53,605 bases of DNA, from the IMG/VR virus record IMGVR_UViG_3300009418_000023, positions 1-53,605 of that record; one strand, given 5' to 3'. Shown piece by piece: positions 6,248 to 47,010 of this stretch. This DNA is from a virus. Lineage: Duplodnaviria > Caudoviricetes. A program made the translations under genes and the position numbers. Each line of letters begins with the position of its first letter. Within the stretch, counting starts at the first letter, position 1. The notes beneath the pieces were generated by a model. The model ran no database searches. It was not told the DNA's origin and worked only from the letters and a program-made list of their open reading frames with translations.

Positions 6248-8689
6248 TTACGCAAAGAAATAATCTGATTGTAAAACTTCCTCAAGCATAAGCTTGCCCC
6301 GTGTTGGAACGTCGGGAAGTTTAATTCCTAATTGGTTTTCAACCTCCTTCTTGAAGTTTTCTAGTTGGTTTGTCTTATGAATCTTAACAAACTCTTCTCT
6401 TAGTAGGTTTCTCATATCATCTATATAATTAGCATGGCACCCGAAGGAATCATGAATCATACAGAGGTCTATTATACCACAGTCTATCAGTCTGTCAATA
6501 GTTAAAAACATATGAGCAGCATCTAAACTGTGTATAAAGTTAGGGGAGATAGCTTGTAAAGAATCACGCGGAGCCACATCATTTGTCTTAACATAGAATA
6601 TAAGTTCCTTCTTGTTAAACAGATGAGCAAGAGATCTCCTCTTCTGTTGTTTATTATACTGGTGAACTACTTTAAACCCACTGGGGGTTGTCCACTCAAC
6701 GTGTTTGTTAAGCTTGTTAGCTTCTTCAATAATAGATTTTAAATATTGTTTGCCTTTGTTTGGTCCACTTAATGAGCGGTCAAGGCTAGCTTTAATAGCT
6801 CGGGCCAGCTCAACAATAGCTGCACCCTTCTTCTCACGAGACACCCAGTCGAGGTGTCCCTCTTCTTTTAGGTATCTCTGTATTCCATAGAAAGTAAGAC
6901 CATACGGTTCACACATTGTGCTGCGCTTTGTTACCTTCCTATCAATTTTATTATCCCAAAACTCTAGAAACTCACGATACCAATCGTTGTCGCTACTAAA
7001 GTTAGTGCAATAATCAGTAGTAACATCAGCTACATACTGGTATAGATCGTGCGGTTCGTCTGAAGGAGTTACCCCAGTCAGCTTAGCAATATCAGTGTCG
7101 CCCATGATAGAAGACCAGTGTTGGTTGCCGTTACATTTACCATCGATCTGTACAGGTACATAACTCATACCATCTTTCCTAGTAATGTCAAAGATCATTG
7201 CCAATCTTTGGAAAGACTTGTTCTTCTTCTTGGAATCATCAATCCATTCTTTATTTCCATATGGATCTTGAGATATACGTTCAATCATGTCCCAGTTATC
7301 GTCAACCCATTGTATTCTTTTATCAAAGGATACTTTATCTTGGTCAAACAGGTTAGCTAGATATATTTTCTGCCAATACCTACCCCTCTCGGTTATCTTA
7401 ACACCATTAGCAAACCTAATCATCCCCCTATCTAGGTCAGATGATTGGGGGGACAGCAACTCACAGGTTGTGTATGCCCTGCCCCTGAAATCTAGGGTGT
7501 AGACATGATAGAAAAACCCCCAAGGAATAAGATTCTCAGCCAGCTGAAGACGTATTAACATCCTTCCGCGAGCTTGTTCTTGCTTATACCAATCACTCCA
7601 AGCTTCCTCTTGGCGTTGACACCAGATAGCCTGTTGTTCTTTTGACCCATCTTTAGGGTACTCCTCATTATACATGAATTCTTCGAACGAAAAGTAGGGT
7701 AGATTAGCTAGCCCAGTATTGTTCTTAAACAGGGATTCCATCACCTCTACTACTGGTTCATTGATAGACCACTCTGTTTTCATCATGTGATTCAAACCCT
7801 TAACAACCTTTAAAGAAGGGCTCGAAAATTTTTGGTCCCTTTTTTGGTCTCCAAAGAAATTAGATCTAAACTTCTGGACCATAGGTTTCCTTAGGTTGGT
7901 ATGTATATACCCACCTGTAGATATTGTAGTATGGTCTTCGGGGATAGACAACATAGGTCTATATATTAGTGTAGAGTTCTGAAGAACATCGTGTCTTTTG
8001 TGTAGCTCTCTAAGAACATCGGGATGAAACTCAACCGATAGAAATTTCTTATAAGAATTACCTCGTTTTATCATATGAGAAGTTAAGATAATTATATTAG
8101 AAGAGGCAGCTATCCTAAGCATGTTATGTCCGAAGTCATGCCTTTGTTTAATTGATAGCTTAACATTTTTGTCCATCTTATCGGCAAATGCACGGCATCT
8201 CTTAGGTGTCCAGTTCTTTATAAACTTAGATTGTCTTAACCAATCATCTCTGTTATCTTCCTTAGCTCTTTGGAACGCAATAATATCACAAGCGTCATGA
8301 GATATCTGTGTAGCTAAGGTTTGTGCTAGAGGGGGGATAACTTTATCCTTTTCCCACCTGTATCCCCAGAAGGTACTAGAGAACCAGCTTCTAATCACAG
8401 CTCTTATAGTTATGTCAGCCATCTTCTGCGGACCCAGCTCAAGTAAGGGGTACAACCATTGAGGTGACTTACTTGATTGACACACCCTATCAATCCACTC
8501 CTGAAACACTTCTCTTAGTTCTACAACAGAAGAATCAATAAGTTCTTGTTCAGGTATGCCCTCATCGGGAGCGCGCTCATAGTCTGACCAATATCTAGAC
8601 TTACCATACTCAAGCATCTCTTGTTCATACAAGATCTGCGAGTTCTTTCTCTCTAACTTAGCGTCATCAGTTAAGGTATCCCATTTCAT
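6248..8689 (-). CDS. Single-subunit T7-type DNA-directed RNA polymerase (RNAP1)
   Basis: DFRGRAY, motif A IDGKCNGNQH, DLY, motif B RKVTKRSTMCEPYG, PNFIHSLDA, motif C IHDSFG, C-terminal YFFA. Confidence 0.98.
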   Translation of the reverse strand: MKWDTLTDDAKLERKNSQILYEQEMLEYGKSRYWSDYERAPDEGIPEQELIDSSVVELREVFQEWIDRVCQSSKSPQWLYPLLELGPQKMADITIRAVIRSWFSSTFWGYRWEKDKVIPPLAQTLATQISHDACDIIAFQRAKEDNRDDWLRQSKFIKNWTPKRCRAFADKMDKNVKLSIKQRHDFGHNMLRIAASSNIIILTSHMIKRGNSYKKFLSVEFHPDVLRELHKRHDVLQNSTLIYRPMLSIPEDHTTISTGGYIHTNLRKPMVQKFRSNFFGDQKRDQKFSSPSLKVVKGLNHMMKTEWSINEPVVEVMESLFKNNTGLANLPYFSFEEFMYNEEYPKDGSKEQQAIWCQRQEEAWSDWYKQEQARGRMLIRLQLAENLIPWGFFYHVYTLDFRGRAYTTCELLSPQSSDLDRGMIRFANGVKITERGRYWQKIYLANLFDQDKVSFDKRIQWVDDNWDMIERISQDPYGNKEWIDDSKKKNKSFQRLAMIFDITRKDGMSYVPVQIDGKCNGNQHWSSIMGDTDIAKLTGVTPSDEPHDLYQYVADVTTDYCTNFSSDNDWYREFLEFWDNKIDRKVTKRSTMCEPYGLTFYGIQRYLKEEGHLDWVSREKKGAAIVELARAIKASLDRSLSGPNKGKQYLKSIIEEANKLNKHVEWTTPSGFKVVHQYNKQQKRRSLAHLFNKKELIFYVKTNDVAPRDSLQAISPNFIHSLDAAHMFLTIDRLIDCGIIDLCMIHDSFGCHANYIDDMRNLLREEFVKIHKTNQLENFKKEVENQLGIKLPDVPTRGKLMLEEVLQSDYFFA

Positions 8690-14968: not shown

Positions 14969-15072
14969 TTAGATTGTTCCAGTGTATTACCAGTTATACT
15001 ACATACGCGACGCGCGTAGTACATTACATACTATATTTCGCCATATGAACGGGAGTCGAACCCGTATCTCTG

Positions 15073-15144
15073 GAATGTTAGAGTAGTTTAGTGTCATGAG
15101 GCTTATATTGCCTTCCCATAGAGTTACCGCTCTTACTCAGGACA
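15073..15144 (-). repeat. ~72-bp direct repeat copy 1, putative pseudoknotted ncRNA
   Basis: Near-identical to 15837-15909. Confidence 0.85.
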
Positions 15145-15445
15145 AGTATATCGACCCATCCCGAAGGTTCCCGCCAAGGGTAGTGGCGCTATCATTCCTT
15201 ATAAAGATGACACATTTGCTACTCTTGGCTGCATCTAAACCTCAACCTAGCCCCTTCAACCGTCCAACATTACTAGGCATGTCTATATAGTTCATAGTGC
15301 AGAGGATTAGGCTACACAACCGTCAGGGGTGGCTCAATTAGTCTCACTTGGCTAGCACAATGCAAGCCCTAATGATACATCACATGAAGCGGTCTATGGC
15401 AGGGTCATGACTCCCTACATCCCTTTGTTCTCACACGTGTAAAAA

Positions 15446-15524
15446 TGGAGGCGGGCGGAGTCGAACCGCCGTCTTCGAGAGTCCGACATGCGGAGTTCTC
15501 TCGAATCTAAACCAAATCACCCCC
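15446..15524 (-). ncRNA. Mini tmRNA-like RNA (tRNA-like domain only, G3-U70 Ala acceptor)
   Basis: GGGGGTG ATTTGGTTTAGA TTCGAGAG..CTCTCGAA GAC GGCGG TTCGACT CCGCC CGCCTCC A. Confidence 0.75.
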
Positions 15525-15588
15525 CATAACGCGGAAGCCAGCGTGCTACCAGTCATAACACTACTAGGCCCAAGGTGCGACCTTGGCG

Positions 15589-15785
15589 TAACCTAGACAG
15601 GATTCGAACCTGTTCTACTGGACTCTCCTTGTTGATTGTTGACCGGCAGGATTCTCTATACCTGCAACCGAGAGATATCGTAAAGATATGGTCACCTCAG
15701 TACCAGCGTGATCCCAGTCAAGGGAATGCCCTAAACCACTTGGTCGTTGGGCAGACTACCACAGTCTACGCTTGTGCCTTAGGCT
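15589..15785 (-). ncRNA. ~197-nt multi-hairpin RNA closed by an acceptor-like stem and T-arm
   Basis: ACAGG-TTCGAAT-CCTGT then CTAGGTT-A; 5' AGCCTA pairs with TAGGTT; internal hairpins GTAGACT/AGTCTGC, TCCC/GGGA, GCAGG/CCTGC. Confidence 0.45.
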
Positions 15786-15836
15786 CCGATGTCAGAAGCC
15801 TTATTCAGCCACGGTCTACCCCCGTCGGGGTGTGTT

Positions 15837-15909
15837 GAATGTTGGAGTAGTTTCAAGTCATGAGGCTTATATTGCCTTACCATAGAGTTACACACTCTTA
15901 CTCAGGACA
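15837..15909 (-). repeat. ~72-bp direct repeat copy 2, putative pseudoknotted ncRNA
   Basis: Near-identical to 15073-15144. Confidence 0.85.
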
Positions 15910-16107
15910 GTGGTGATGCATCCCTCCCAATATTTATACAGGTAGGGAGAATCCCCTGTGATAGTTGTCTCCCCGCATCCTATAGATGCTACGAGGAATT
16001 CACAAGGCTCTCCGAAGATAGCCTATACCTCTCTAAAGGGAGAAAAGGTGTACCCCCGTTATCGAGGGGTACACCGAAGTTTGTCGAAAAAAGCAGATGC
16101 CCGTAGA

Positions 16108-16386
16108 TCAAGCCTTCTTGTCGGATTTCTCTTCCAACAGGGTAATCTTGATCCCACACGCTTCTAATTCCTTCTGAAACGCGGGTCTCTTCTCGCATGC
16201 CTTCACAGCACGGGATATCCAACGGTTCATTGCCAGCTTACCCCACTCTTTATCCTTCACGCCCATGACATTCCTAGCAGAGCACAGGTTATCCTTGATC
16301 GCCTTCTCGCTATACTCACGAGTAGGAGACTTCTTGGACCGCTCCGCAGGTGTCAGGGGTGTGATTTCGTATTCGTATGTCATCAC
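16108..16386 (-). CDS. Hypothetical protein
   Basis: GGAGG RBS before GTG/ATG. Confidence 0.7.
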   Translation of the reverse strand: MMTYEYEITPLTPAERSKKSPTREYSEKAIKDNLCSARNVMGVKDKEWGKLAMNRWISRAVKACEKRPAFQKELEACGIKITLLEEKSDKKA

Positions 16387-16593
16387 AGACCTCCGTTAAC
16401 CTTAAGTCTAACCTCAGGGTACATACACATAGTATGTAAACCCAATAACAATAACAATACAGACAAACTAAGCTTCAAACTTAGCTCATACTATACTATT
16501 ATACCCATGTATACCGCCCACGCACACAAGTGCTGCTCACACAGCAACTTACCACGTGCCCCGGCGGGCATAACAGAGTAAGGGATACTGAGA

Positions 16594-16697
16594 CAGGCGG
16601 AGCCTGAGCTAGTGTCCCACGGATTACAAGGCGGAGCCTAATCTATACTCCACAGTTGCACATACACGTTCCATATTATATATGCAGGGCGGAGCCC
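16594..16697 (-). promoter_or_regulatory. Three N4-type hairpin promoter candidates (GC-GGA-GC on the + template strand)
   Basis: CAGGC-GGA-GCCTG (16594-16606), AGGC-GGA-GCCT (16629-16639), GGGC-GGA-GCCC (16687-16697). Confidence 0.55.
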
Positions 16698-16704
16698 CTG
16701 TAAA
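16675..16704 (-). promoter_or_regulatory. Putative sigma70-type promoter
   Basis: Minus strand TTTACA-18 nt-TATAAT in an intergenic region, pointing into the early genes. Confidence 0.45.
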
Positions 16705-16740
16705 GACAGGCCACACTTGACTAATAAATAGTCGGTTCAG

Positions 16741-16775
16741 AAAAGCCCCCCTGAGGAATCTCACCTCAGAGGGGT
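16741..16775 (-). terminator. Rho-independent terminator
   Basis: Minus strand CCCCTCTGAGG-TGAGATT-CCTCAGGGGGG followed by CTTTT, downstream of 16808-17371. Confidence 0.75.
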
Positions 16776-16807
16776 GGAGTTTATTCAGTCTTTACTTAAG
16801 ACTTAAC

Positions 16808-17371
16808 CTACCACTTTACGCTGGCAACTGCCTTCTTTACCTCTTTGTCGGTTTCATACAAAACCGCACACTTAGCAAACTCATTATCAAACCGTGATTC
16901 ACAGGCCTTGATTGACAATTCCTTTGTCAGGCAGGGAATGGATTCGATAGTTATCGGATAACTCTGTATCAGTGTTTTCCCTCCTAAGGAGAGTCCGCAT
17001 TTCTCACAGAGCCAAGTCGTAACAAACTTGCCATCAGAAGTCTTCGTTGTCTTGGGAGTTTCCAGTCTTCGCAGCAATCGAATGTACCGAAGGTTATTCG
17101 TGTCAAAGGATTCAATCATAAGATTGTCACCCTCAACTGTGAAACCAAGTTCGTCACACTCTTTCTTTACGGAGACTGAATCAAGGGGGCGATAGCCGAT
17201 GTAGGTGTGAAGCTTATCCACATCCACATTACCATCCAAAGAGATGATCCTAAGGGCTATGGTGCCTTCCTTGTTATTCACAATAGCATCCACAAGAAAC
17301 GGGTTTCCGTCGGCATCCACTGCTTCACGCATGACATGCCTAGACGAGTGGTAGGTTTGTGAACCAGCCAT
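16808..17371 (-). CDS. Hypothetical protein downstream of RNAP2
   Basis: AAAGGAG RBS; 187 aa; contains CEKC. Confidence 0.8.
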   Translation of the reverse strand: MAGSQTYHSSRHVMREAVDADGNPFLVDAIVNNKEGTIALRIISLDGNVDVDKLHTYIGYRPLDSVSVKKECDELGFTVEGDNLMIESFDTNNLRYIRLLRRLETPKTTKTSDGKFVTTWLCEKCGLSLGGKTLIQSYPITIESIPCLTKELSIKACESRFDNEFAKCAVLYETDKEVKKAVASVKW

Positions 17372-17430
17372 GATTCACTCCTTTCAATGAAGTATAGCCT
17401 ACTCCGGGCCATTGACGAAGGCCAATGATG

Positions 17431-17471
17431 ACGGGCTCTCGTCAGAGGGTCGAGGACTAACGAGAGCCCGT
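17431..17471 (-). other. 15-bp intergenic stem-loop (possible RNase III site)
   Basis: ACGGGCTCTCGTTAG / CTGACGAGAGCCCGT, with one G-U pair on the minus strand. Confidence 0.6.
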
Positions 17472-17491
17472 GGATCTTTGGTCTTCAGTAC

Positions 17492-19324
17492 TCAGTCAAT
17501 CGTGTCGAGATGGTGCATACGAATCACTGGTGGGATCATCTCAGCAATCTCAGCGTATGATGGTCCACTCGGTGGCTCGACATCATTCGCTTCCCACAGA
17601 GGAGCCAACGTAGCCTCCATTGTGGGAATAATTCGCACCATGACATTACGAGCATTCTCAAAGAACCGCCCAACTCGACTTGGTTGAAGTAAGAAACCAT
17701 CATGGTTGTCAAGTTGATGCCAATCTTGACTTTTGTTTTCAAGATTGAGCTCACTGTTGAAGTACGAATCATATATCGCGGCGAGGTGACAGCTAATCGA
17801 TCCGAACATCTCAACCTCAAACGGTGTGTACGTTGCCTTGCCTTTCCTACCATTAACAGAACCCCTAACTGTACGCTCTGGTTCTGTTGTCAGGCGGCTA
17901 TAAGGCATGAAGGGAATTACTTGCCCATCACCACGAATCAACTCAATCATCTTGCCAGTGGTCTCGACGCAGTGCTCATTGGCATTACGTGAACGTTGTC
18001 CGAGAGATCTGATCTCCGGAATAACCTCATGCATAGCCGGAGCACCAACATTACGAACCCACTTCTTGGCCACATCATACAGCTCTTCATACGTAACTGC
18101 GGCACGGAGTGTGCCCTTCTTGGTGAAGAGATGTACGAAATCGGGGTGTGTGGGCACCCAACTCGGGTACTCAACATGGTCTAACAGGTAAACCCTGTCC
18201 TCTTGGTACAGCCGTTCCATCTTGTCTGGATCGAGACCCAAGAGGTGGGTTGCCATGACAGCAACACCAGCCTCATACTGTCCGCCTCGTGCCAACCGTT
18301 TGGCGGTAGTACGTAGCGAATCATCCAACTCAATATCATTATCCATGGAGTTGATCCACCGACACATCTCGATATATGCGTCTCGCCGTTTGCCTCCGAA
18401 GAGATTACCCAGCCGCATACCAGACATACTTTTCTCAATCAACGCCTGAAACAGCTGCCCCGAACAACCCTGATCAAACTCTGCCGCAAGGGTTGTCTTC
18501 CCAGTTTGGGCATACTCTTTGCACTTCAACGCCACGCGAACGAGGCCGTATCCGTACTTATCGATACACTGACTCACTGAGCCACAACTGAGAATTGCTT
18601 CCCAGTTGTTAGCGTGAAGACCTGCCATGCCATTCGTAATTGACCAGAACACATCTGGTGTACATTCTTCGGCATTAGCGAAATCAATAAGTCCCTTTGT
18701 ATGGCTCTCTGTTTGCCATCCACAGTTACTCATATGATTGTATCGCCTTCCACGCTTATCGATACGCCTTACTGTTGGGTAGAACACTGAGTCGCCTACT
18801 CGCTTCAGTTCTTCAGCTACAGTTTCGAAACGTTCTGCATAGGCTCCACCATCCTTCGAATGGAATGCATCTGATCCCATCCATCCTTCAAGAAGCTCCA
18901 TGCTGTAACGAAGCTGAGTATCAGAGGTCCACTGCATTGACTCTGTCATACGATCGCAGATCGGCATTACATTACTCGAACACCGAGTAACCTCAGGAGC
19001 CCAAAGGCCCGTCAGCTCTCGCCGTTCCGTCTGGATAATATGCTCTCGGTGTGGGTACTCTGTCTGTTGCTGCCCAATGTAGAACTTACAGCAACTCTTA
19101 GCAATCTCGTGTTGCTGATCGTCTTCATCAGGGAACTGACGCTGTAACTCTTTGAACTCCTGCGTTCCTTGCAGTTCCAGTTCTTGATGTGCAGGAATTA
19201 CTAAGCGATCCACAGCATCTGACCCATCCCAACTGGAGGGCTTAGCGTGATATAGCACACGCTTTACTAATTCCGAATCCCCCTCGACCAAAGGATTCAC
19301 TAGGGTTGTGTTATCATATTTCAT
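17492..19324 (-). CDS. Second, compact single-subunit RNA polymerase (RNAP2, ~610 aa)
   Basis: IDKRGRRY, motif A EFDQGCSGQ, RDAY, motif B RTTAKRLARGGQY (Rx3Kx7Y), motif C NHDGF. Start MKYDN after AGGAG (alternative start 19375). Confidence 0.85.
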   Translation of the reverse strand: MKYDNTTLVNPLVEGDSELVKRVLYHAKPSSWDGSDAVDRLVIPAHQELELQGTQEFKELQRQFPDEDDQQHEIAKSCCKFYIGQQQTEYPHREHIIQTERRELTGLWAPEVTRCSSNVMPICDRMTESMQWTSDTQLRYSMELLEGWMGSDAFHSKDGGAYAERFETVAEELKRVGDSVFYPTVRRIDKRGRRYNHMSNCGWQTESHTKGLIDFANAEECTPDVFWSITNGMAGLHANNWEAILSCGSVSQCIDKYGYGLVRVALKCKEYAQTGKTTLAAEFDQGCSGQLFQALIEKSMSGMRLGNLFGGKRRDAYIEMCRWINSMDNDIELDDSLRTTAKRLARGGQYEAGVAVMATHLLGLDPDKMERLYQEDRVYLLDHVEYPSWVPTHPDFVHLFTKKGTLRAAVTYEELYDVAKKWVRNVGAPAMHEVIPEIRSLGQRSRNANEHCVETTGKMIELIRGDGQVIPFMPYSRLTTEPERTVRGSVNGRKGKATYTPFEVEMFGSISCHLAAIYDSYFNSELNLENKSQDWHQLDNHDGFLLQPSRVGRFFENARNVMVRIIPTMEATLAPLWEANDVEPPSGPSYAEIAEMIPPVIRMHHLDTID

Positions 19325-19394
19325 GATAAACACTCCTGTGTGAGGGATTCTAAGGATGACAGTACAAACACTCATCCTATAAAAGTGTCAAAGG

Positions 19395-19422
19395 CCTCCT
19401 CCGACCCGAAAGCCAGAGGAGG
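19395..19422 (-). terminator. GC-rich hairpin upstream of RNAP2 (terminator or processing site)
   Basis: CCTCCTCTGGC-TTTCG-GGTCGGAGGAGG followed by CCTTTGACACTTTT. Confidence 0.45.
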
Positions 19423-19447
19423 TATACTTCTCTTCTTCCAGCATTAC

Positions 19448-19963
19448 TCACTTGGAACGCCTGTTGTACCACATTCCAAAGTGTGAGTTAGCATCTTCCA
19501 GATCCTTCCACATCCAGTAGTCACCCTTCGCCTTGAGTACCAGATCTTCGAGGATCTTGATATGGATCTCTTTGGGTGACCTCTTATCCTTGAGACGGCA
19601 TACATCTAGCAAATTCTGGATGTGCCGGGGCGCATCGTTGGCCGGATCACCCTTAAGGTGCTCCATCAGTCGCCAAGCAAACTGGTCTGCAACATCTTCT
19701 GCCGTCTTGTACGTGAAGTGACCAAAGTGAAGTTGCTGCAAGTTGTCACGAGTACCTGTAGCTATCCACACCCATAGCCTGAAGAAGGCCTCCAGAACCT
19801 CTTCGAGGGTTGTATCTTCCTCGAAGATAGAATCATGAAGTAACCGAATCTTCATAAGATAAGCGTCAGAGTCTACAGTTCCATCGGTGCCAGCGATAGC
19901 TTCCTTGACCCTCGCAAGGTCATCGGGACTATGCCAACAATCGAGTAACATATCGCCACTCAT
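19448..19963 (-). CDS. Hypothetical protein
   Basis: AAGGAG RBS; 171 aa. Confidence 0.8.
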   Translation of the reverse strand: MSGDMLLDCWHSPDDLARVKEAIAGTDGTVDSDAYLMKIRLLHDSIFEEDTTLEEVLEAFFRLWVWIATGTRDNLQQLHFGHFTYKTAEDVADQFAWRLMEHLKGDPANDAPRHIQNLLDVCRLKDKRSPKEIHIKILEDLVLKAKGDYWMWKDLEDANSHFGMWYNRRSK

Positions 19964-20011
19964 AACTAACTCTCCTTGTGTTAGAGGTATGATTTACATC
20001 ATCTCTGAATA

Positions 20012-20040
20012 GGACACACGGGATTTCTCGCCGTGTGTCC
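20012..20040. other. Perfect 10-bp inverted repeat
   Basis: GGACACACGG-9 nt-CCGTGTGTCC, intergenic. Confidence 0.6.
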
Positions 20041-20070
20041 GTTTGGTTGTTAAGTCCAGTTAAGGACTGA

Positions 20071-20280
20071 CTAGCTCACACGGATCACGGTGACATGATC
20101 CAGATGAGTAGCGAGTTCGCCTTCCCAGCTTGTGAGAAGCCGACGGTTACGAGGATAAGGATTGCCGAGCACGGTGTCAATCGCACGTGCCGTGAGCTGC
20201 TTGTCATCCTCAGTGATACCTTCAGCGTTCTTATCTTCTGGGGAAGGTGGAACCCAGAACCTTCGGGGGGGGGCGGTCAT
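20071..20280 (-). CDS. Hypothetical protein
   Basis: GAGGAGG RBS. Confidence 0.7.
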   Translation of the reverse strand: MTAPPRRFWVPPSPEDKNAEGITEDDKQLTARAIDTVLGNPYPRNRRLLTSWEGELATHLDHVTVIRVS

Positions 20281-20479
20281 AATGACCTCCTCGTGTTAGA
20301 GTTATGACCTACGCAGGTCATCTCAAAAGTCAGCACCACACCTTACGGCGAGGGCTGGTACACTGAGACAATACTAAAACCACTCTTCCCGACTTCCCCT
20401 CCATGAGAAGCATGGTAGTACTCTCTTAAGTCTCTCCGGATACCAGCGGTACCCGGAGAGGTGACTCGGCGTGATCACC

Positions 20480-20815
20480 TCATCGTTGATGGGTGATCAA
20501 TCCCGACTGATCGGGAAGCACAATCGCATCCCTACGCTTCTTCATCTGGACTTGATCCAGAGTGTCCGAAGTTTGAGGACCAACGATTAGCGTAACTGGA
20601 CTGCGCTTTCTATAGAAACGCTCAGCCACTTCGTCACTGACCCACTGATCCTGATGCCACCTAAGTGGAACCAGAGTTACAGTCTGTTCAGAACCTTTCG
20701 GTTCGTCCCTGACTAAGGAAGCACAGATGTGTCCCCAGTGATGCCAGATCACAAGTGTCAGCCCAGCTAGTGCAAGCACTAACGCCGATATGTTGTACCA
20801 TTGAGCATCGCTCAT
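20480..20815 (-). CDS. Membrane-anchored hypothetical protein
   Basis: AAGGAG RBS; N-terminal TM helix. Confidence 0.75.
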   Translation of the reverse strand: MSDAQWYNISALVLALAGLTLVIWHHWGHICASLVRDEPKGSEQTVTLVPLRWHQDQWVSDEVAERFYRKRSPVTLIVGPQTSDTLDQVQMKKRRDAIVLPDQSGLITHQR

Positions 20816-20857
20816 TATAGTACTCCTTTGGGTTGTGACCCCGAAGGGTCAGACCAT

Positions 20858-20947
20858 TGGCCTGTCTCATCAGTGCTGGGCGGCCAGTCCCAACAAACAC
20901 CATACTCCTCAACCATCGGCGGTTGAGGACGTAGGGGGTGTTTCGAC
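20858..20947 (-). ncRNA. Type II hammerhead ribozyme
   Basis: GUC-GAAA-[stem III CACC...GGUG]-UU-[stem I UGUUGGG/CCCAGCA]-CUGAUGA-GAC; loop I UGGCC can pair with the 3' GGCCA. Confidence 0.85.
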
Positions 20948-20987
20948 TATTCATCCGCAGTCGAAGCGGTGTCGAGTGCGTCAGGGT

Positions 20988-21173
20988 TTACTTACCCTGT
21001 GCAATTGCAACGCACTTCGGACACAGTGGGATCTCGATGCGGTTTCCATCCGCATCACAGACAGCCACTGTGATGCACGCGCAGAGGTGACTCTGCTCGT
21101 GCGATATGAAGCGCCCGCAATCGGAACACTGCTCTTGCGAGCTAGTGTTACGCCGGACATCGGATGATACCAT
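20988..21173 (-). CDS. Small Zn-finger-like protein
   Basis: AGGAGG RBS; CSDC...HLC...CPKC. Confidence 0.65.
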   Translation of the reverse strand: MVSSDVRRNTSSQEQCSDCGRFISHEQSHLCACITVAVCDADGNRIEIPLCPKCVAIAQGK

Positions 21174-21282
21174 AGTATCACCTCCTGTGGGTTGTGACCC
21201 TACAAGGGTCAGGCCTTAAGGGGATAGGGGGGGAGGGCATACCCTCCACCTCATCCATACCCACGGAGAAATTCTCGACCCC

Positions 21283-24200
21283 CTAGTCGATTATTCCCGC
21301 ATCTCTATCGTACCTTCTTTGTTGTGCCTTACGTTCTCTATCCTCCCATTCGGGACTCCCCACAGGAGCTCCTACAAGGCTCTCAGGAGCTCGCTCAGGC
21401 CGCGTCTCTCGGATAGCCCCCACTATATCTCGTCTCATAGGACGCGGTGTGGGGGCAGCAGGAGCCTGTGAGGGGACGCTAGGAGCGGTTGTCTTAGGAG
21501 CCGGTGCAGGGGTTGCTGCAGGATTGGGATATTGCATCTTAGGAGTACCTGTAGCACCGGAGGGATTATACCCCTGAAGGAGTTGTTGTTGGATTGCTGG
21601 TGGGAGGTTTTCAAACTTAGGTTCCCACCCTAGTTCTCTAAGGATTTCTCGTAAGTCTGCGGCATATTGGGGTAAATTAGATGTCTCAGAAAAAGAACCA
21701 TAGGTTGCCCATTTTTTGTTTGATGATTTAGCACCCCTGCTCATTGAGTTGTTTTGCCTTTGCCACTCTTCGCCCATAGCGGAGAAGAATATAATCCTAG
21801 TTAAGGCATCGCCTATAACCGGAAGTGTTCTCGTTAGCATTATCATTGATGCCCAATCTGTATCTTTTTCATCATCTGTCCAGCCATCTATCAGCTTCTT
21901 AACATTATACAAGAAGGAGTTCATTGCACCCACTGGTACAAATCCAAAAGCTTCTCGGTGTGTGTTTGCGTAGATACCTACTACGGTTTCCATAAGCAAG
22001 CCTATATATCTACCAAAGTGTGGTAATCTAGCCATCATAAACAATGATTGTTTAACCGGGTCTTCTTCCCATCCCTCGATGATGTCTTCTACAGGATATC
22101 CTGCAGCTACAAGCAACAGTGACATATACAATGAATCAACCATAGCATATGAAACCCAATGAAGGGCGTTTCGTCTAAGGCTGAATCTTTGGTTTCTTCG
22201 TCCAATTTGCTGAGAAGCAAATAATACAGGATACCGCCTAAAGGTTTCAAAGATAAGATCCCAGCTACTATTGCCCGTAGCTGTATCAAAGGGATTAGGG
22301 TCGACTAAGATTTCATGGATATATCTTTTTTCTGCTCTTCTTAATCCTGAAATTATATCAAGGTATTGTTTGTATTCTGGATCTGTAGTAGCCCACTGAG
22401 GACCGCCTTCCCATGCCTCACCTTTATTCAAATTAGTTAATAATCCTCCTAAGCTGTAATACTCATCTCCCTTAGGACTGTTAACCATCTTAGCAAGGAT
22501 ATCTACATTATCGTTTGTCAGAACACCCTCATTCATTAAATACATAATGTTTGCTGCGTCTGTTCCGGGCAGGCCTACTCTTGACATTAACTTAGAAATA
22601 ATCTTACGCCCATCTACAGTATCCCATTCTTTAGGATCAACCTGCTTATGTAAACGCAAGAACTCTTTTAGCTTACTGCCATCTCCACCAACCGTAGCTT
22701 GCTGTAACCATCCTCTAAAGATCGTAGCTCGTGAGGTAGCAATCATTTGATGCAGTATTCCTGCAAGGTGCATATTACGCTCACCTAACCACTGAGGTAA
22801 CCTTTGATACCACTCCGACCTTACATCAATATCTGGCCGAGCATAGTCTGGTATCCGACCTTGGTTAAATATTCGGATAATCTCTGCCATATCTCTTGCA
22901 ACATTCTTTCTAATGTTAGGATCAAGTCCCATAAGAGGGGCAACGGCAGCCTTAATAAAACCACCCATACTACCTCGACCAAGTAGTTGATCAATCATAT
23001 TCATAGTATTCTCTACTACAAGCGTAGCCATAGTAAGGTTTGTGCCAAAGACAATTCTAACAACATCTGGAGCATATCTTGTAATAAAGTTTAGAGTTTC
23101 ATCGGCTGAGTCTCTATTACTTTCCTGTTTACCTAAAATAGTATTATACTTGATCTCTAATACACCCATTGCTTTAGTAAGTATATCACTGTCTTTAGCA
23201 CTTATACGACTACCGTCACTATTAAAAAGATTACCCATACCCAGTACATTCCTAAAGATACCTAACACATCGCCAGTAGTAGCCTTAATCCCATACTTAT
23301 CCATATACATAGATTGCTCTGCAATCCTCTGCCCAAGATGTTTCATGATACCATCTGAAATTGTTTCTGGCCCCCAGACAAGCATATCTGCAATCGCAGG
23401 ATTATTCATAACTTCGTGGACCGGAGGAATAGCCCAATCATTAGAGAAGTATATCTTTCGTCCAGCACCATTCATAATGTTTGCCACATGAACACTTACA
23501 GGACTGCTGATAGTAGGAGACTGCTGTCTTGCGGATTTTCCTTCAACGACCCCAAGAGTCGCAAGTCTGGAATCTATAGACTGACCTCTAAGTATATCTA
23601 GACGAGCTTGATTAGGTTTCTTTGCCTCAGCCCTATACTTACTCCACCAACCAGCGGTAATTCGTGTGTTTTCACTATTAAACCCCAAGTAGTCAGCACT
23701 AAACTTATTCTTTTTGTATCGCATATACCTCATAATTTGAGCTATAGCTGGTATAACATAGTTAACATAAGTATTGTGTTGTTCAATAGTAGAAGTTTTA
23801 TTTGTAAGTAAGCTACGGTATTCTTCATTTGTTTTAATACTTGCAAGTCTAGTTAGTGTGCTATCATAAGATGTGCTTCTTTCGCTCTGGCGTTGCCTCA
23901 TTAATTCGGCCATTGCCATAATTTCTTTCCAGAGTTGTGGGTTCTTAGTTTCTAACTCAGCTAACTCTTTTAGCCCTACTTCGGGATCAGCCAAATGAGG
24001 AAGCTCGCCCATTGCGTATAAAGTATAAGGACACATTCTTCTTGTTTTAAGATCTATATTCTGAGATTCCGTAACAATACGATCTCCAATAACCTTACCC
24101 ATTTCTTCTCTAAAGTTATTATAAACCGGCTGATCTTGTACCTTAGCATTCGCAAACATAAAAGGAATAGCTTCATCAAAAGCTCTATCCATAACACCTA

Positions 24201-27200
24201 CTTCGACCCCCATATGGTTTACAATACCTAGTAATGCAGCATAGTTAGTTACAATATTATCTGCTTCCTTTCTTAGCTCTGTGCTGTTTACAAGCAATGC
24301 ATCCGTGTACTCATACGCTTCTCCTGCCATTTGTTTTACTAACTTAGTCCACACTTCTTTAGCAAAGGTATCTCTTGTTTTCTCGTTTCCGGCAGTATTC
24401 CCTAATACCTGAGTTCTAAATCGAACGGTTGATTCAATAGGCCCAATAATATCATCGTAGACTCTTTCCATAGAGTTTCTAATCTCAGTAGATATTTGGT
24501 CAATCTGCTGAACAGAACCTAAGACATGGGGTATGCCATCCATATTACCCCAATGTCCTGCCATAGTACTCATTGAGTTGTCAATCATTGTTGATAACAT
24601 AACAAGTAAAGTAAAGGGAGAATTCCAAGTAGCACCGGATTCAGTACTACCAGTAGCAAGCATAGTCATAAACTGTTTTACTTTAGAACCAATACCACCC
24701 GGCCTGTTAAAGTAAGGAAGCTGCTGTATTGCCTTAGTAGCTTCAGCCATAAAGCGTCCGTCATTCCCCCGCATCATTTTAGTCATATCCATCAGTATCT
24801 GTGTAGCAAGAATCTGTTGATCATGAGGAGTACCTTCAACGAATATTCTCTTAACATCAAGAAGATCTGGACCATATGTTTCAACTGAGAAGTCCCCGCT
24901 TCTAACACTATATTGATTCTTAAGGTTTTCCCGACCTATAAGGAATTCACCTGTAGTAATACCAAGCGGTGTTATTTTATTACCGCCAAGAGTATCACGC
25001 CTATTCTCTAGCTGACCACGCTCCTTACTCAACTCCTCCCACTCCTTTTCAAACTTTCCGGATTCACTTTCAGGTGCCTCGGGAGTATAGAAGTTATGGT
25101 GTATAGCGTCCTCTAATTCACCCATTCTTCTCTTAACTTCATCAAGAGATTGTAGGGTAGCTAGTAATTCGTTCTCTGTATTCTCCACCGTAGATTGTTG
25201 TTGTGTTCCTTCTGTAGACATATACAGCGGTCCCATATCAGGGTTACCTACATCAGCTATCGTATTTCTACTTGTCTTGGTTGCATCCTGTCCTAGAGTT
25301 CTTCTGATTAAGTTAATGGCTCTTTCGTATTCAGCTGGCTCGGTTGATTTAAAATCTGAGAATACAGAAGATACTCTATCTAATATCTTACCAATAAAGG
25401 CAAAGATTTTATCAATTATGGTTTGTGTCTTTGCAAAGAATCCCGCTTCTTCGGAAGTTAGAGGAGTATTGGCTTCAACCTGCCTTAGTAATTCTAAGGA
25501 ATCGTGTACTAAATGATACCCTGTCAGGGCCGCAATAAACTCTTCGCCCGTAGTATCGTTCATAATTCTAGCATACTCATCTTGAGCAGCCTTATTCCAC
25601 TGGCCGTTATGGAAAGCCATAACAAGTTTCTTCAGTGTTCCGCCACCCTGTTTACTCCGCTCGCGTAAGAATAACGTTCTCCACTCTCTATAGTGGTATG
25701 AATCATTCTCGATAAACATCATTCTACCAATATGGCCAATCTCCTCAGCCACTAAATACGCCACACTTAATGCATCTCTTCGCCCAACTAATTGATTACC
25801 AATTCTAATTGTATACCTACCACCTGATTTTTCTGCGGATCCTCTTCGCTGTTTCCCAGAATTATCAACCCACTCACTATCTAAGAATTCAAAATTAACC
25901 TCAAGAACCATATCAGGAGCATACTTAAACCACTTACCAAGAATTGCTCTTATCATTCTAGCTTGAGCCTCAGAAAGGCGACCACCGTCAACAGCCTCTT
26001 TTATCTTAAGGGATAGTTTACCCAACTCAGGAACAGCAGATGAGAAGTTATCGTGATTTCGAAGATCTCTGCTTTTAAGATGCAGCTCATTAAATAAATC
26101 CGGATCTCTATCAAACACATGAGTATCTAATACAGAAGCTAATGCCGCCTCTGCTGAAGAATGCATCTCGGTAGACATATCTTCAATATCATATATCTCC
26201 TGCAGATAAGCAAGGAAGTCAATAGTAATATCGGAATCACCAGAAACAGTACGTTCTCCCTCGCTAATCTGATCTACGTATGATCTAGCATCCCAATAAA
26301 AATCATTAAACTGTTGACTATCGGTTGCATTTAGGATTGACATAAGCTGATTAAACTCACCCTTAACTCTAAGGTAAGCACTAGAAACATCAGCATCAAA
26401 CTTTTCTTTTTCTGCCGCTGTTTCTCGTGACATCAGGGGGAAGAATACTCTAACCTCGCCCATCTCAATATCGGGTTGCCGTAACATAAGCCCAAGTATA
26501 ATAGCTCGTATGGTTGCTGGGTTTTTAATATTCCCATCAGTTAGTTGTAGTGTAGTTACAAGGAGTTCTTGAATAGTTCTATGCTCAAGATCAACCCCAT
26601 CTGTATACACATCCATATAAGATTCTCTAACCCCAGTTAGATCATGAATAAGACTCAACCCTCTTGAGTTAGCTTGTGAGTGAGGGCTACTATGTTCCAT
26701 TTCTATATTCCAAGTTGGAACAATAGTTTTAAAGGTTGTCTTTGCTTTTCCTTTTACCGTCCCTCGGAACGGTCCTTCAGAGGCAGCCTCAATATCAACC
26801 GGCGTTGTTCGTCTAACTAATTCCTTTAGAATTTTTTCGTTAAACTCTGCATCTTCTGAAATATATTTGTTATATAGATCCATAGATGCTTCCGGCGATC
26901 TTTCATTTATCTCCGCAATTTTTCTTCTAATTGCGTCTGCCTGTATAGGAGATCCAGAACGCTCAAAAGCTAAACTCAAATCTTTCTCGGTAACCACTAC
27001 TGGTTCACCATTAACTCGCGTGCCTCTCTTTTTTAAGGCAGCAGCAAACATACCCTCTTCACTCTTCTCACCGAGTTTTAATCCTTTAAGCAAACTATTT
27101 AAAGTCCAGTTTAGACTTTGTGTAATGTCACCACCTAAAAACTTAGAATCAGCGAGCATGTTGTTTTGCATTAAGTCAATACTAAGTTCAGCAACTATCT

Positions 27201-30200
27201 GCGCAGTATTAAGATCATTAGCAAGGATACCTAACTTTCTAAGGTCAAAACTATTTCCATTATAAGTAACTACCTTGCCTCCCGCTAACAAATGCTGCTT
27301 CAACATCTTTAATAAAGCTCTAGCTTCACTTCCGCTTACTGAACGAGTAGGCGAGAAATGCTTACCCTTTTTAAACCCCACTCTTCCTGCTGCTTCAAGT
27401 GTTCTTTCAACACCACCAATACCTACAATACGTTGTTCCAAGTCCATCGTAGTTTCAATATCAATAGATATAACATTATCTGTATCGTATATCCAATTAG
27501 GGTTGCTTTGGATTTCAATAATATTAGCTGCTTCAGCTTCATCTAAACCTAGCGATGTTAAGATTTCTACTGCTTTGGTAGGATTATGTTGAGACCACAT
27601 AGTTCTTTCTGGTGCAGCCCTAGCCATAATATTCATCTCAAGCAAACCTAAACTAGATAGTCTCTTCATAGCTGTAGTAATTGGAGAGATTAAAGACTCA
27701 ATAAAGAAGGGTAATGCATTAGGTCTAAGTCCAGCATCTGGTCTATAATAATTAATCCAGTCTACAACTCTAGGTTTAATATTACCAGATGAACGAGAAC
27801 CATCAACAAGCATATGAGCAACGGTGTGTCCTGATTCAACACGATCTACTATAATCTCCATTGCTTCACTTAAGACTCTTTCTCTGTTCATCTTTTCAGT
27901 TTCACTGTAGCCGAAGTAATCAGCCATCTCTTCAGCATCAGATCGAACTAACTCAGGCTTACCTTCGGCATTAGATCGATAGCGACCTGTTGGCTTGTTG
28001 GTACGCATCGCGGTTTCTATTCTTTCGATAAAAGGATAGTTCTTATGTGACGAAAGCATCAGTAAAGCACCCATTGGTGTAATACCGAGTTTCATGTTTG
28101 TTCCGATTACCGTTCTTGGAACTCTCATAAGCATAGTAAAGGGGCCACCCATAGGATTACGTAAAATCATTTTATCAGTACGTTCATCCTTCGTTGGCTG
28201 CTGCTGTATTAACTTAACAAGGTCATTTCTACCCTCAACACTCTCTACAATAAAATCAAAGGAGAATACAGGATCATTTGCTAGTACAGCTTTCTCTCTA
28301 GCTACATTAATAATAGCTTCTCTGTGATCTGGAGGAATAGCGTTAAAGGATTGTATATCTCTTTGATTAGCAATAACTCTTAATTGTTTCTTTAGTGCGG
28401 GCTCCTTAACAATACCTATATATGTTTCTATAGCTTCAGATATATACCCATCCCACAGTACTCCTACAAGAAACTCCAACTCATCCACAGACTGAACAAG
28501 TAAGGGATGTATGGCCGTCTCTTCTAGTTTAATTGTTTCGCCCGGATTAACCCCCTCTTCAATTATAAAGTGCTCTGTAGGAACTAAGCTTTTTTTCAAA
28601 GCTTTGTGAATAAGGGTTGGTCCGGATAAGACAGAGAATGGATTATTCTCCGAATATGGACTTGTCAGGATATCATATAGCGTTCTATCTGCTAAGTCTG
28701 GATTTAAAATACCAATTTCATGTCCCTTAGTTTCCATAAGTAAGGAAGACATCTCTTTGTATCTAATATCCCGAGATAATTGGAACAGCGCGTGGAATCC
28801 TTCGAGGTATGTATTACGGGCTTGTAGTAGTTTCTCTTCGTTAGTTAGTCCTTTATCTCCATAGCGTACAGCAGAAATGATCTGGTCCATTTCATGTTCA
28901 AGTTTTTGATCAAACCTATATACTAAATACAAGTACGGTACCATTTCTGGATCAAGCATCTCTGCCTCAAAGCCACGTTCTATTGCCCACTTACTCATCT
29001 TCATCTCAACAACATTAGCTACCATCTCAGGTGCATTAGCATCTAATCCCATAAGATAGTCTAGATAATCAGACTTAACATCTGGACCCATTGGAAGAGT
29101 TTCTCTATTCCAAGGTTTCTCGAATCCTCTACTAGTTACTGGAATTAAGTGATCAGGGTTTTCTAAGGGTTGGTCTAACATAGCCGATACTTCTTCAATA
29201 GGACTCATCATCTCTCGTTCAGCGGCATGATAAGCTTTATTCTGAAGGTATAGGTTGCCCTTATTGTGATAAGGCATTCTCCTAGTTTCAGGAGCCCAAG
29301 ACATGTATCCCCTTGGTTTGTCTGTAGACTCGAATACCATATCTTCTGTATCGTGTCGTAGTTCTGTCATTGTATGTTCTGCGGACCCTCTGAAGGTCAT
29401 AGGATGTCCTGCGACTGGGACCAGTAAACCTATACCCTTAGAGAAATAATCTATGCTTGCTTGGTTTCGAGAACCATCAGCATTCCTAACACTATCTTGT
29501 TGTAGTCTTTGCGCATTAGTATGATCTATAGCAGCTTCTTGAGAATGCTCCCACCACTGACTCAATACTTCGGCTTCGAGTTCATCCATATTATCTTCAG
29601 CTTTATATTTTGACAGAGGCGGCTTCTCGGGTTCTGTAACTCTAAGAAGCATTTCATTTCTCATCATAAGAACAGCAATAGTATGATCCATTCTCTTGTG
29701 CCACTCCGCTACTTCAGCGTCATTATCAAAATCAACCATTCTCATTATGGGGTTGCCATATTTATCTAACCTTACCTTCCCATTTTTATCCCTAACCGGA
29801 ATCTTTTGATGAGGATTATCTTCCATTCTCCACTGACCCAACGGAGATTCGCCTTCTACGTCTACAAATACTTGCTTACCGTTTACATATTCGTAGGGAT
29901 TTTCAGACCACTCCATGATCTTTCTACCAATCTTAGCAGGGTTATCCCAATCTTCATCTCTAATCTCTTCTGCTACGAAACTTTTAAACGCATCTTGATT
30001 AGTTTGGATTCTAGCAAACATCGTGTTGTGATGGTGTCTATTCATATTAGAACTTGCAGAATAGGTTCTATAACTCTCAAGACCGGGTAAGAAGATTTGA
30101 TACAGAATAAAGTTCTGAATTCCAAGAAGATCTTCTTCATTAAATCTCTGGTGATTAGTTGCTGCTTGTGCCTTTAATACATCTACAGCAACTCTGAACC

Positions 30201-33200
30201 CCGTAGAGTTTACTGTATTTAATGCTCTGAATAATTGATTATGTTTCCAGTGCATACCCTTTGGTTGCAGTAATTGGCCAACCTCTTCCCTTTCAGCTAA
30301 AGTTAGCTTTCCTCCTTCTCCCGGCTTTGCCCTAGCATCTGCTTTCCTAATGATTGCGTCAGCTTTCATCAACCTACTATTCTTATACTTCTCCTTAAAT
30401 GCTTCTACAGTCATCTGAACTCTTTCGCCATCCGGTCCTATCATCATCTCACGCTTAGCTAACATAGCAATATTTAGATCCAGTTGTCGGCGTAAATAAT
30501 CTCTTTTCATAGCGGGGTTATTTTGATCTGTTTTCTTAATCTCCTTGTTCCGCATACTCTTTACAGTTGAAATCCAATCTGTTATATGCCTATCTGTCAT
30601 GTTTTCGTGCATTGACAGAATTTTTCTTGCTTCTTCCCGAAGACCCTCAATACCCAAAGCTACATCAATAACAGCAGCGTTCTCACCCGCTATATGGTCA
30701 AATATAGAATGTCCAAACAAAGCCATAACATGTGATATACCTTCAGATTGATCCTTAAAATTAAAACCAAACTCTTGCCTCAGCCTAGTCAGGATACCTA
30801 CAAACATTGGATCGGTTTGTAGTTCTACCCAGCCTTTCCATCCCATAGTATATAGCCTACGCATAACTTCTGGTTTCCAGAATTCACGCATCAGCTTCAT
30901 CTTCCTAACCATATCAGGATCAGAGCCTTCATTACTAACGTAATCAGTATACTTAGTATGATCATCGATTCCCAACGTAGCTAACTGATCATAAAACGTA
31001 ACCATTGGAGAGAGAAGTTCGCCATATTCTGGGTGTGCTAAAGCCTTTCTTCTAACGGTTTCAGCAAAACCTAAACCAGCTCTGATATAATAATCTTCAG
31101 CCTCAATAGACATATTCATTTTATTCCTTAACTCACCCATAGCGGTAATAGCTGCTTCGCTACCGAGACTTAGAATCTTAGTTACAAATAAACCATTAAA
31201 CTTCTTATCCAAGTAAGTCTTTGGTGAAAGGATCCTTTTATAGAACTCTGGGTTTTCCCAATACTTTGGCCCAAACTCTTTATAATGTTCTTTTGCATAG
31301 GCTTGTTCTGCTTCGGTAGCCTGTTGAATAACATCATTGGCTAATCCTTCTAAGTGCATGTTCATGCTTTCTAAAGCAAGTATAGAAGAAATACCACTCA
31401 TTGGAACAATAGTAGGTAAGCCTGTAGTAAGCTCAGGGTGTATCATTTTAAAAGCTGCATCACCCTCTGAAGTATAGACTAACCCCGGACCAGCCGCCCA
31501 ACGAGCATCATGGAGGAAAGCATAAGCAATATTTGCTGTATCTAATAGAACCTCAGAAAGAATATTCTTAAGTTCTTCTCTAGTAGTAATTCTATCGTTT
31601 AGTCTTACATTAATAATAGGAGGCAATAACCTAGCATCTGGTTGAAGACTTCTAGAAACAGGTCTACCCGGCACAGCACCATCTTTATCTTCTAGATAAG
31701 CGTTGTATTCTATAATATCGTTCTCATCAATCTCTTCTGTAAAGATAAACTCTAATCGTTTCCTTACAATAGCATCTTCAATCACAAGAGCAACAGCCTC
31801 AGGTCGTTCTGGAGCAAAGGAAGTCATGTGTCCCCGTAACATCGGGTGTGTCCGGACTGTCTCTCCTTCTTGCGGCTCATCAAAACGATTCTCTTCTTTT
31901 CTTTCTGATCTATATTCTGGGGATTTTCGTCTCTTGGTAACTATTTCTTTAGTTTTTAGTCTGGTTACTAAAGCAAAGTCAACCAGTTCCCAACCAAGCC
32001 GTCTTGCTGGTTGCCAGCCCCGAGTACCGTCCCCCATACTAATGATCTCGTCTCTAGTAATTAGGGTGTGTTCATTATCACCCTCTGCAAGCCTATCAAG
32101 AATTATACTAGCTATTCTATCTAGGTCTTTTAAGTCTTCTGGAATCTTAAAGTAAGCATATATATCTTTCTTCTGTCTTTGAGATTGCATAAAGAGTACT
32201 TCTAATTGCTCAACTATACCCTTTCTAACCTCCTCAAGATATTTCATCTCTGCTTCTGCTCTTGATTCCGGATCATCTAGATCAAAGGTAATTGTTTGGT
32301 CAAGATCGGGAGAAAGATTATCTGTTAAATCAATTAGGAAACCATACTGATTAAACAAATCATCATCGACTGCTCTCGACGCTTTCATAAGTCTATCGGT
32401 AAACGCAATGGCAGTATATAACCCAATCTTAGATTTAGGATCTCTATCATAAACCATAACATCTTCTTCTGTAGCCCTAGTTTCAGCATTCTTTGCTATT
32501 ACTGCCTGATGTGCCGTGTCTCGTTTTTTGATAAAGGTTACTAATCCTTCATCCCCCTTGAAGTCATGCAACAGACTTTTTAAAAGGTTCTTAGGAAATC
32601 CACCTTCCCCTGCTAAAGTAAGGGCTCGAACATCCTGTACAAACCCCCAATCTGTTAGATCTGGGCTAACGAGAGTCTTCCCTTCAGCTTCAAGGCGGTT
32701 ATTGATGCCCGAGATATATCTAAATAATCCTAACTGACCTTCTTCTGACTCGAAAGCCTTAAAGAGTTTGTGTATAATTTGCCTTGCTTCTAGTTCGTTA
32801 ATACGGCCATCCTGAAGTGCCGTCCTAATTTCTGCAACCCATGAATTAGCTTCGTGGATTCTCCACTTCTCCCCCTTTTCCTCAATCCTCTGAAGAACCT
32901 TTTGAACCTTTGCATCACCTTCTTTCGCTACAAGTCTCCGTCCTCTAATGCGGCGAACTAAGTCTGTGAGAGACTCTTTTGAGATTGCTTTAAGATCACC
33001 ATTAGCTCTCATTATTCTACGAGTAACTAAGGCAATAAGTTTATCTAATCTAACAAACAAAGTATCATACTCAAGACTCAAATCTTCCATCGTTCTGTTA
33101 CTAGGAAACTCCTCGCCTTCTGCATTAACAATAACTTCTCTAAAGACTGCATCATAGATACCATCTGGGAGACAACTATCAACAACGAAGATTGGAACCA

Positions 33201-46206: not shown

Positions 46207-46503
46207 TTATTGTGTAAAGAAATCACGGAATGGCGTACCACCCTTTTTAGTATTGCTTGCAAGCCTATTTACCCAGCGAGCTCTCTTATGCTTCAGCACA
46301 CGGTCCCTCGTTTTGGCAAAGGCCTTGGCAAGCCCCTTCATCGTCTTGATAGGGGTCTCGGACATAGGGGCAATACTTTGATCTTGATAATTTCTCATGA
46401 CATGGCTCAGGAAACTCCTACCACTACCATGCTTTTTTCGGTAATCCTCAGCTCTTTTAACTAATTCTCTCTGCCAGACTCGTGCTTTTTTCTTCTTACC
46501 CAT
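46207..46503 (-). CDS. Small basic protein
   Basis: K/R-rich; GAAAGGA RBS before ATG at 46503. Confidence 0.65.
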   Translation of the reverse strand: MGKKKKARVWQRELVKRAEDYRKKHGSGRSFLSHVMRNYQDQSIAPMSETPIKTMKGLAKAFAKTRDRVLKHKRARWVNRLASNTKKGGTPFRDFFTQ

Positions 46504-46528
46504 GATCAATATCCTTTCTGTTGGTTGT

Positions 46529-46825: not shown

Positions 46826-46827
46826 GA

Positions 46828-47010
46828 TCAATATCCTTTCTTGGAATTTGTTGTAGCTTTCTCTGAATTTCCGCTACCACCACGAACAGAATAATCATTC
46901 TTTGGGTTGGAGTACATTTTCTCCATGCGGTGTTTGTTAATCAACTCTATGTAAGTTCCGTATGGGTCCGAGACCCCCGGTGCAAATGTTGTTACTGAAC
47001 TGTTTGGCAT
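46828..47010 (-). CDS. Small hypothetical protein
   Basis: GGGAG RBS. Confidence 0.6.
   Translation of the reverse strand: MPNSSVTTFAPGVSDPYGTYIELINKHRMEKMYSNPKNDYSVRGGSGNSEKATTNSKKGY

Follow-up and report, generated by a model that had tools for sequence, protein, structure and literature searches.

The window, by which we mean the whole stretch of DNA analysed, is an entire IMG/VR virus record of 53,605 bases, with an estimated genome completeness of 79%. Searches against Pfam and PHROGs assigned it a T7-like gene set, and the source is a marine, uncultured phage. Near-identical DNA was found in contigs from many marine metagenome runs, and no RNA run was among those that matched 20300-21500. 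A search by blastn with positions 19400-22400 returned 0 matches in cultured-phage records. Every long open reading frame lies on the minus strand, so that the annotated genes run, with falling coordinates, from a nozzle protein (51429-53531) and a beta-helix fibre (47620-51417) through a T7-type large terminase (44490-46187) to a single-subunit RNA polymerase (6248-8689), a primase/helicase (1858-3567) and a family A DNA polymerase (3-1184). Two large frames stand between terminase and polymerase, one of 1,430 aa and a giant ORF of 5,359 aa (21283-37362, minus strand), and the giant ORF is followed by small ORFs and RNA genes over about 12 kb.

The giant protein matched no Pfam or PHROGs family, and a sub-threshold RNase_H_2 match at residues ~3300-3400 was its single hit. 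Open frames of 4,734-5,184 aa occupy the same place in related phages. The giant ORF sits past the terminase, whereas the internal virion proteins of T7 are encoded between nozzle and fibre. Two adjoining ORFs of 100 aa (46207-46509 and 46529-46831, minus strand) share a 48-nt repeat (77%) that spans the start region of each. The pair, which closely follows the terminase gene on the coding strand, probably arose by tandem gene duplication.

The region from about 15000 to 21600 is a G+C-distinct module (0.45-0.56, against 0.38-0.42 in the giant gene and 0.37-0.46 below 15000). It holds the hammerhead described here, small ORFs, an ORF of 627 aa and manA and tmRNA-like RNAs. The manA RNA lies at 15636-15831 (79 bits), and just downstream of it an 82-nt element (15443-15524, minus strand) scored 51 bits with the Rfam tmRNA model (cut-off 47). 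This element matches only the ends of the model, the acceptor and the T-arm, and has 14 nt where the model has 306; ARAGORN made no call for it, and it looks like a tRNA-like mini-element. Direct repeats of 55 nt (15073-15127 and 15837-15891, 91% identical, 764 nt apart) flank the manA RNA and the tmRNA-like element and may be repeated promoters or module borders.

The locus under study is the first intergenic region between small ORFs past the giant gene. ORF1 (20988-21173, minus strand) encodes 61 aa with a CxxC...CxxC arrangement, and ORF2 (20480-20815, minus strand) encodes 111 aa with a hydrophobic N-terminus; neither matched a Pfam or PHROGs family. Among viral contigs no relatives were found for ORF2 or for the 627-aa ORF, and ORF1 gave three weak matches (45% over 31 residues), none of them with a ribozyme nearby. 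ORF2 is preceded by a 30-nt cassette (20823-20852, minus strand) made up of a UUCG hairpin (UGACCC/GGGUCA), ACAACCCA and the ribosome-binding site AAAGGAG, and a second, near-identical cassette of hairpin and ribosome-binding site stands before ORF1 (21182-21213, minus strand). Between the stop codon of ORF1 and the cassette of ORF2 lies a type II hammerhead (20856-20948, minus strand). The RNA polymerase gene is on the same strand, 12.2 kb further downstream, and the genes on both sides of the hammerhead are co-directional.

The hammerhead was identified both with the Rfam model RF02276 (Hammerhead_II) and with a descriptor that we wrote independently of Rfam, and the two agreed on the stems, the core, the pseudoknot and the cut. 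Read on the minus strand from 20948 to 20856, the element consists of A, GUC, GAAA, a 45-nt hairpin, U, a 22-nt hairpin, CUGAUGA, GAC, A and GGCCAAU. Its topology is that of type II, with stems I and III closed by loops and stem II open. Stem II has 3 bp, formed by its 3' strand GUC (20945-20947, with C11.1 at 20945) and its 5' strand GAC (20864-20866, with G10.1 at 20866). The invariant core is complete: CUGAUGA (20867-20873) supplies C3 U4 G5 A6 N7 G8 A9, and GAAA (20941-20944) supplies G12, A13, A14 and A15.1, these last being invariant in four aligned hammerheads. The pairs that adjoin the core are intact as well, namely A15.1-U16.1 (A20941-U20897), G10.1-C11.1 (G20866-C20945) and U1.1-A2.1 (U20895-A20874). 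Stem I is a hairpin of 7 bp (20874-20895, in which 20895-20889 pair with 20880-20874) with the loop ACUGGCCG. Within that loop UGGCC (20882-20886) can form 5 bp with GGCCA in the 3' tail (20858-20862), which gives the loop I/3'-tail pseudoknot. In the fold, stem III is a 45-nt hairpin (20897-20941) with the helices ACACC/GGUGU, UAC/GUA and UCCUCAACC/GGUUGAGGA; its first run is 5 bp by the descriptor, and its insert is a perfect 9-bp helix. The residue at H17 is U20896, that is, not G, and cleavage is predicted between U20896 (triplet GUU) and U20895 by both the descriptor and the Rfam alignment.

The original prediction had proposed a type II hammerhead at 20858-20947 with this core, a 7-bp stem I, an open 3-bp stem II, an extended stem III, the pseudoknot and a cut after GUU, and had called for a search with the Hammerhead_II model. 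All of these parts were recovered, with limits that extend 1-2 nt beyond the earlier ones. RF02276 aligned over its full length (model positions 1-66) at 39.0 bits, where the gathering score is 37; the E-value was 1.7e-4 when the whole window was searched and 1.9e-5 in a search of 6 kb. The score lies just 2 bits above the cut-off because of the U at H17 and because 35 nt of stem III are treated as an insert, where the consensus has 9. None of 14 control genomes exceeded the RF02276 cut-off, and a second hammerhead was not found in the window even at E <= 0.5. A loose descriptor match near 35319, inside the giant gene, was set aside as of the chance kind (its stem I has 4 bp and a loop of 37 nt, and its triplet is UUU).

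Relatives of the phage were collected as 22 viral records by their RNA polymerase (54-74% identity), and the whole records were searched with RF02276. Three of the 22 exceeded the cut-off: G008 with 51.5 bits, G018 with 43.0 and G002 with 40.6. The C-terminus of a giant-gene homologue is present in five of the 22 (G002, G008, G009, G013 and G018), so that, with the window counted, the ribozyme is found in four of the six records that have the giant-gene junction; it is absent from G009, which is complete, and from G013. The latter (locus L005) is the nearest giant-gene relative, with 54-58% protein identity. At the junction of these two phages neither a hammerhead nor any other Rfam ribozyme was detected (E <= 1), which dismisses the idea of another ribozyme class in its place, and the hammerhead is therefore dispensable.

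The four carriers have one order on the coding strand: giant gene, C-rich spacer, small ORF, hammerhead, ribosome-binding site, small ORF. As in the window, where the original prediction had put the element between the first two pre-early genes, the hammerheads of the three relatives lie between the first and second small ORFs after the giant gene, on the coding strand and just ahead of a ribosome-binding site. The small ORFs around the hammerhead show no detectable relationship among the four carriers, and the giant C-termini of the other three are only 27-35% identical to that of the window. Thus either an old position has been lost twice or the junction attracts the ribozyme. On the sequences compared here, the position of the ribozyme is conserved within a small clade of marine T7-like phages.

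Covariation was examined in an alignment of the four hammerheads with a hand-written structure that included the pseudoknot. In this set of just four sequences, standard pairs filled 97.3% of 75 cells, and seven of 20 pairs had changed on both sides: three of seven in stem I, two of five in the pseudoknot, one of three in stem II and one in stem III. When the 3' partners were slid by 1-3 columns as a control, 28-43% of cells were paired and at most one pair was compensatory. The covariation among these four sequences agrees with the established structure of the family.

Several further observations were made around the junction. Immediately after the giant-gene stop lies a 14-mer, GGGGTCGAGAATTT (21269-21282, minus strand), which is identical in G013 and G018 although the proteins are far less conserved. 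The spacer that follows, down to 21174, contains a GGAGGG/CCCTCC hairpin and the C-rich tract CCCCCCCTATCCCC, and such a tract upstream of ORF1 recurs in all four hammerhead-bearing phages. The 14-mer and the C-rich spacer may be a terminus, packaging or promoter signal. In two of the three hammerhead-bearing relatives, whose loci are labelled L146 to L148, namely at L146 (1499-1501) and L147, the ribozyme starts with the last A of the UAA stop codon of the upstream ORF, so that a terminating ribosome would sit on the 5' strand of the ribozyme.

The 110 nt that separate ORF1 from the giant gene contain no promoter-like site. A scan for sigma-70-type sites over 15000-22500 gave 11 sites where 9.1 were expected, with no enrichment, and a 9-of-12 site at 20975-20946 that overlaps the 5' end of the ribozyme was not credited. 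A direct-repeat search of the window likewise found no multi-copy phage promoter. Contig breaks near 21273-21299 were not accepted as evidence of genome ends, and terminal repeats in G009, ~10 kb upstream of its giant gene, were taken as an assembly cut point. The description of ORF1 and ORF2 in the original prediction as pre-early genes on the earliest transcript is an assumption; read-through from the giant structural gene could account for its transcription equally well.

We consider it quite likely, from the sequence comparisons above, that the element is a bona fide type II hammerhead that cuts a polycistronic RNA between the 61-aa ORF1 and the 111-aa ORF2 on the minus strand. From the order of the features we infer the following course. 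A polycistronic transcript would run from ORF1 into ORF2, and the ribozyme RNA would fold with stems I and III closed by their loops and stem II as an open helix of 3 bp, the fold being held together by the 5-bp pseudoknot that joins loop I to the 3' tail. Self-cleavage after U20896 would then yield two RNAs. The upstream one would contain ORF1 with its stop codon, followed by the long hairpin of stem III, and would terminate in a 2',3'-cyclic phosphate. The downstream one would start with a 5'-hydroxyl that lies buried within stem I and would continue through the core and tail, the UUCG hairpin, the ribosome-binding site, ORF2 and the later genes. The likely effect would be to separate the fates of ORF1 and of the downstream message, in stability and in translation. 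Cleavage in vivo is likely, and segmentation of the message is the role that we favour, with somewhat less confidence. Points that speak against this reading are the score close to the cut-off, the rare GUU triplet, an upstream hairpin able to sequester part of the core, and the two junction records that lack a hammerhead.

An additional property of the window copy is a competing hairpin in the minimum free energy (MFE) fold, in which UUCGACUG (20965-20958) pairs with UAGUCGAA (20949-20942). This hairpin (20942-20965, minus strand) has 8 bp and covers a strand of stem II together with G12-A14. Stems I and III alone gave -33.5 kcal/mol, addition of stem II gave -34.4, and the competing hairpin in its place gave -42.0; the competitor thus accounts for -8.5 kcal/mol, compared with about -0.9 from stem II and about -7.5 from the bare pseudoknot duplex. 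With -42.0 set against -34.4 plus about -7.5, the two states are near equal in energy. These values invite the view that the ribozyme is bistable and regulated: the upstream hairpin, which is transcribed first, would form first and hold the hammerhead inactive until opened or slowly exchanged, so that the ribozyme would act as a timer or switch that governs when ORF1 and ORF2 are parted. When the 41-nt leader was shuffled, only 14 of 5000 trials gave at least seven Watson-Crick pairs to the same target, and the MFE fold of the relative L148 also contains an alternative helix, of 9 bp, between the end of ORF1 and GACAGUCGA. However, when upstream complements were tested in 84 instances of phage type II hammerheads (64 distinct), the hammerhead of the window alone reached p <= 0.05, and one in 64 is what chance predicts for that number of tests. 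The helix of L148 had p = 0.115 on a common target, and L146 and L147 have alternatives of 3 bp at most. Furthermore, the stop codon of ORF1 ends 22 nt ahead of the hairpin, so that a terminating ribosome would not open it. The folding switch suggested originally therefore stands as a pairing, since UUCGACU/AGUCGAA is real and present in the MFE fold, and fails as a family trait; an upstream sequestering helix is rejected as a general property of phage type II hammerheads. A designed switch finds no support in this comparison, and we regard a regulated, bistable ribozyme as unlikely.

A broader proposal treats the hammerhead as a positionally fixed boundary device of the clade, placed after the first small ORF past a giant gene of ~5,000 aa, to which the window phage would have added a co-transcriptional timer. 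Such a device would sever read-through of the structural transcript or set the start of an early message, and the near-isoenergetic upstream hairpin and a slow GUU, both acquired in the window phage, would time cleavage. We hold this combined proposal to be doubtful and decidedly unlikely.

The cleavage triplet and stem III of the window copy were compared with those of other phage hammerheads. GUU satisfies the NUH rule and, by the rules of the older kinetic literature, is cleaved more slowly than GUC or GUA. A 17-letter pattern that combines core and tail matched at least 117 viral contigs. Of 80 such loci the first 50 were searched with RF02276, and for 36 of the 50 the record has a type II hammerhead over the cut-off. 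Arrays of 3-7 hammerheads occurred in several of the 50, and at loci L010, L011 and L053 (records G027, G028 and G070) 5-7 type II matches lie within 2-3 kb. Parsing the 80 pattern loci together with L146-L148 with the descriptor yielded 83 type II hammerheads in 60 loci, a sample that is biased, having been chosen by its tail pattern and containing many rows from one phage lineage. In this biased sample 51 hammerheads had C at H17, 31 had A and one had U, so that GUU, which the original prediction had called a less common triplet, is rare yet not unique. Stem III hairpins of the same 83 measured 14-33 nt, with one of 48, against 45 nt in the window copy.

Contigs from four marine DNA runs, aligned to 20300-21500, provided a second comparison. 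The stretch from the cut site to the 3' tail (20857-20895) recurs in unrelated contigs with 2-5 mismatches, and these matches end exactly at 20895; beyond that point the unrelated contigs have short stem III hairpins ending in GUC. Within the motif, contigs of the same phage vary at one position only, 20932 T>C; there G.U replaces A-U in stem III, and the position stays paired.

These features could be read as decay, that is, as the relic of a once-active hammerhead that has lost useful activity through GUU, a swollen stem III and the competitor hairpin and is kept as a structured spacer or hairpin. The RF02276 score barely above the cut-off, the presence of GUU in one of 83 others, a stem III length at the extreme of the range and the two of six junction records that have no hammerhead would all fit an element of this kind. 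Against it, every invariant core position and all the core-adjoining pairs are intact, and the 5-bp pseudoknot is not only intact but shows, when set beside the related phages, a compensated U-A to C-G change. The insert in stem III forms a perfect 9-bp helix, which is not what decay would leave, and GUU conforms to NUH. We therefore judge a relic to be very unlikely.

Chance was assessed with 200 dinucleotide-preserving shuffles of the whole window, searched on both strands. No shuffle equalled the observed match, defined as stem I of at least 7 bp, stem III of at least 5, stem II of at least 3 and a pseudoknot of at least 5, and loose descriptor matches arose at 0.085 per window. The 121-nt region folded with z = -3.97, and again 0 of 200 shuffles folded equally well. 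A chance resemblance without RNA function, for which the single copy in the window and the modest E-value of 1.7e-4 might be cited, is effectively refuted by the 0 of 200 shuffles and the compensatory changes in the syntenic hammerheads of three relatives, and it also sits poorly with the finding that the 39 nt running from stem I to the tail recur in many unrelated marine contigs with other stem III sequences. The hammerhead motif is almost certainly real.

The long early transcript of T7 is cut into separate messages at RNase III sites between the early genes. These sites are long double-stranded hairpins that the host enzyme cuts to leave 5'-phosphate and 3'-OH ends. The hammerhead of the window would, by analogy, yield a similar segmentation of an early transcript in a phage with a T7-type gene set. 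In contrast to the T7 sites, it is predicted to cleave itself and to leave 5'-OH and 2',3'-cyclic phosphate ends. That the hammerhead acts in place of RNase III, as was originally proposed, is an analogy.

In 2011 a description was given of the type II topology, of the pseudoknot that links loop I with the 3' tail and of the need for this pseudoknot in fast cleavage (Perreault et al., PMC3088659). The same paper describes prophage hammerheads that flank single genes or short gene blocks, where long transcripts were inferred to be cut to gene-length messages. Compared with the RF02276 family and the 2011 description, the window copy has the same core, permuted topology and pseudoknot position and the same kind of site, between small non-conserved phage genes. 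It differs in having U rather than C or A at H17 and a stem III of 45 nt rather than a consensus of about 19, in being a single copy and not an array, and in having an upstream segment that can compete with stem II. On this evidence the window copy has three local oddities: GUU, the long stem III and a possible competing helix.

A similar arrangement appears in the haloviruses HF1 and HF2, where, according to the 2011 paper, a hammerhead sits 13 nt upstream of the opening ORF of a polycistronic early transcript and a mapped 5' end falls near the cut (PMC3088659). The window resembles these viruses in having its hammerhead just upstream of a start codon in a co-directional gene run, as the proposed 5' end of a message. 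The halovirus element, however, has a variant core, an archaeal host and a mapped 5' end (PMC3088659), whereas that of the window has a canonical core.

The element kind, the pseudoknot and the placement between small phage genes had thus been described already, and no current view is changed by our results. Literature searches found no paper on hammerheads specifically in marine T7-like phages; this setting is a narrow gap in the literature, the hammerhead kind itself being already known. The present study adds one more phage hammerhead. According to a 2017 review, prokaryotic hammerheads flank small non-conserved ORFs and are persistently tied to phages, in a role that was not established (PMC6155905). 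Together, the four marine T7-like phages with a ribozyme at the same junction and the two related records without one make up a comparative set that can be used to ask what hammerheads do for phages, a question that the review still treats as open (PMC6155905).
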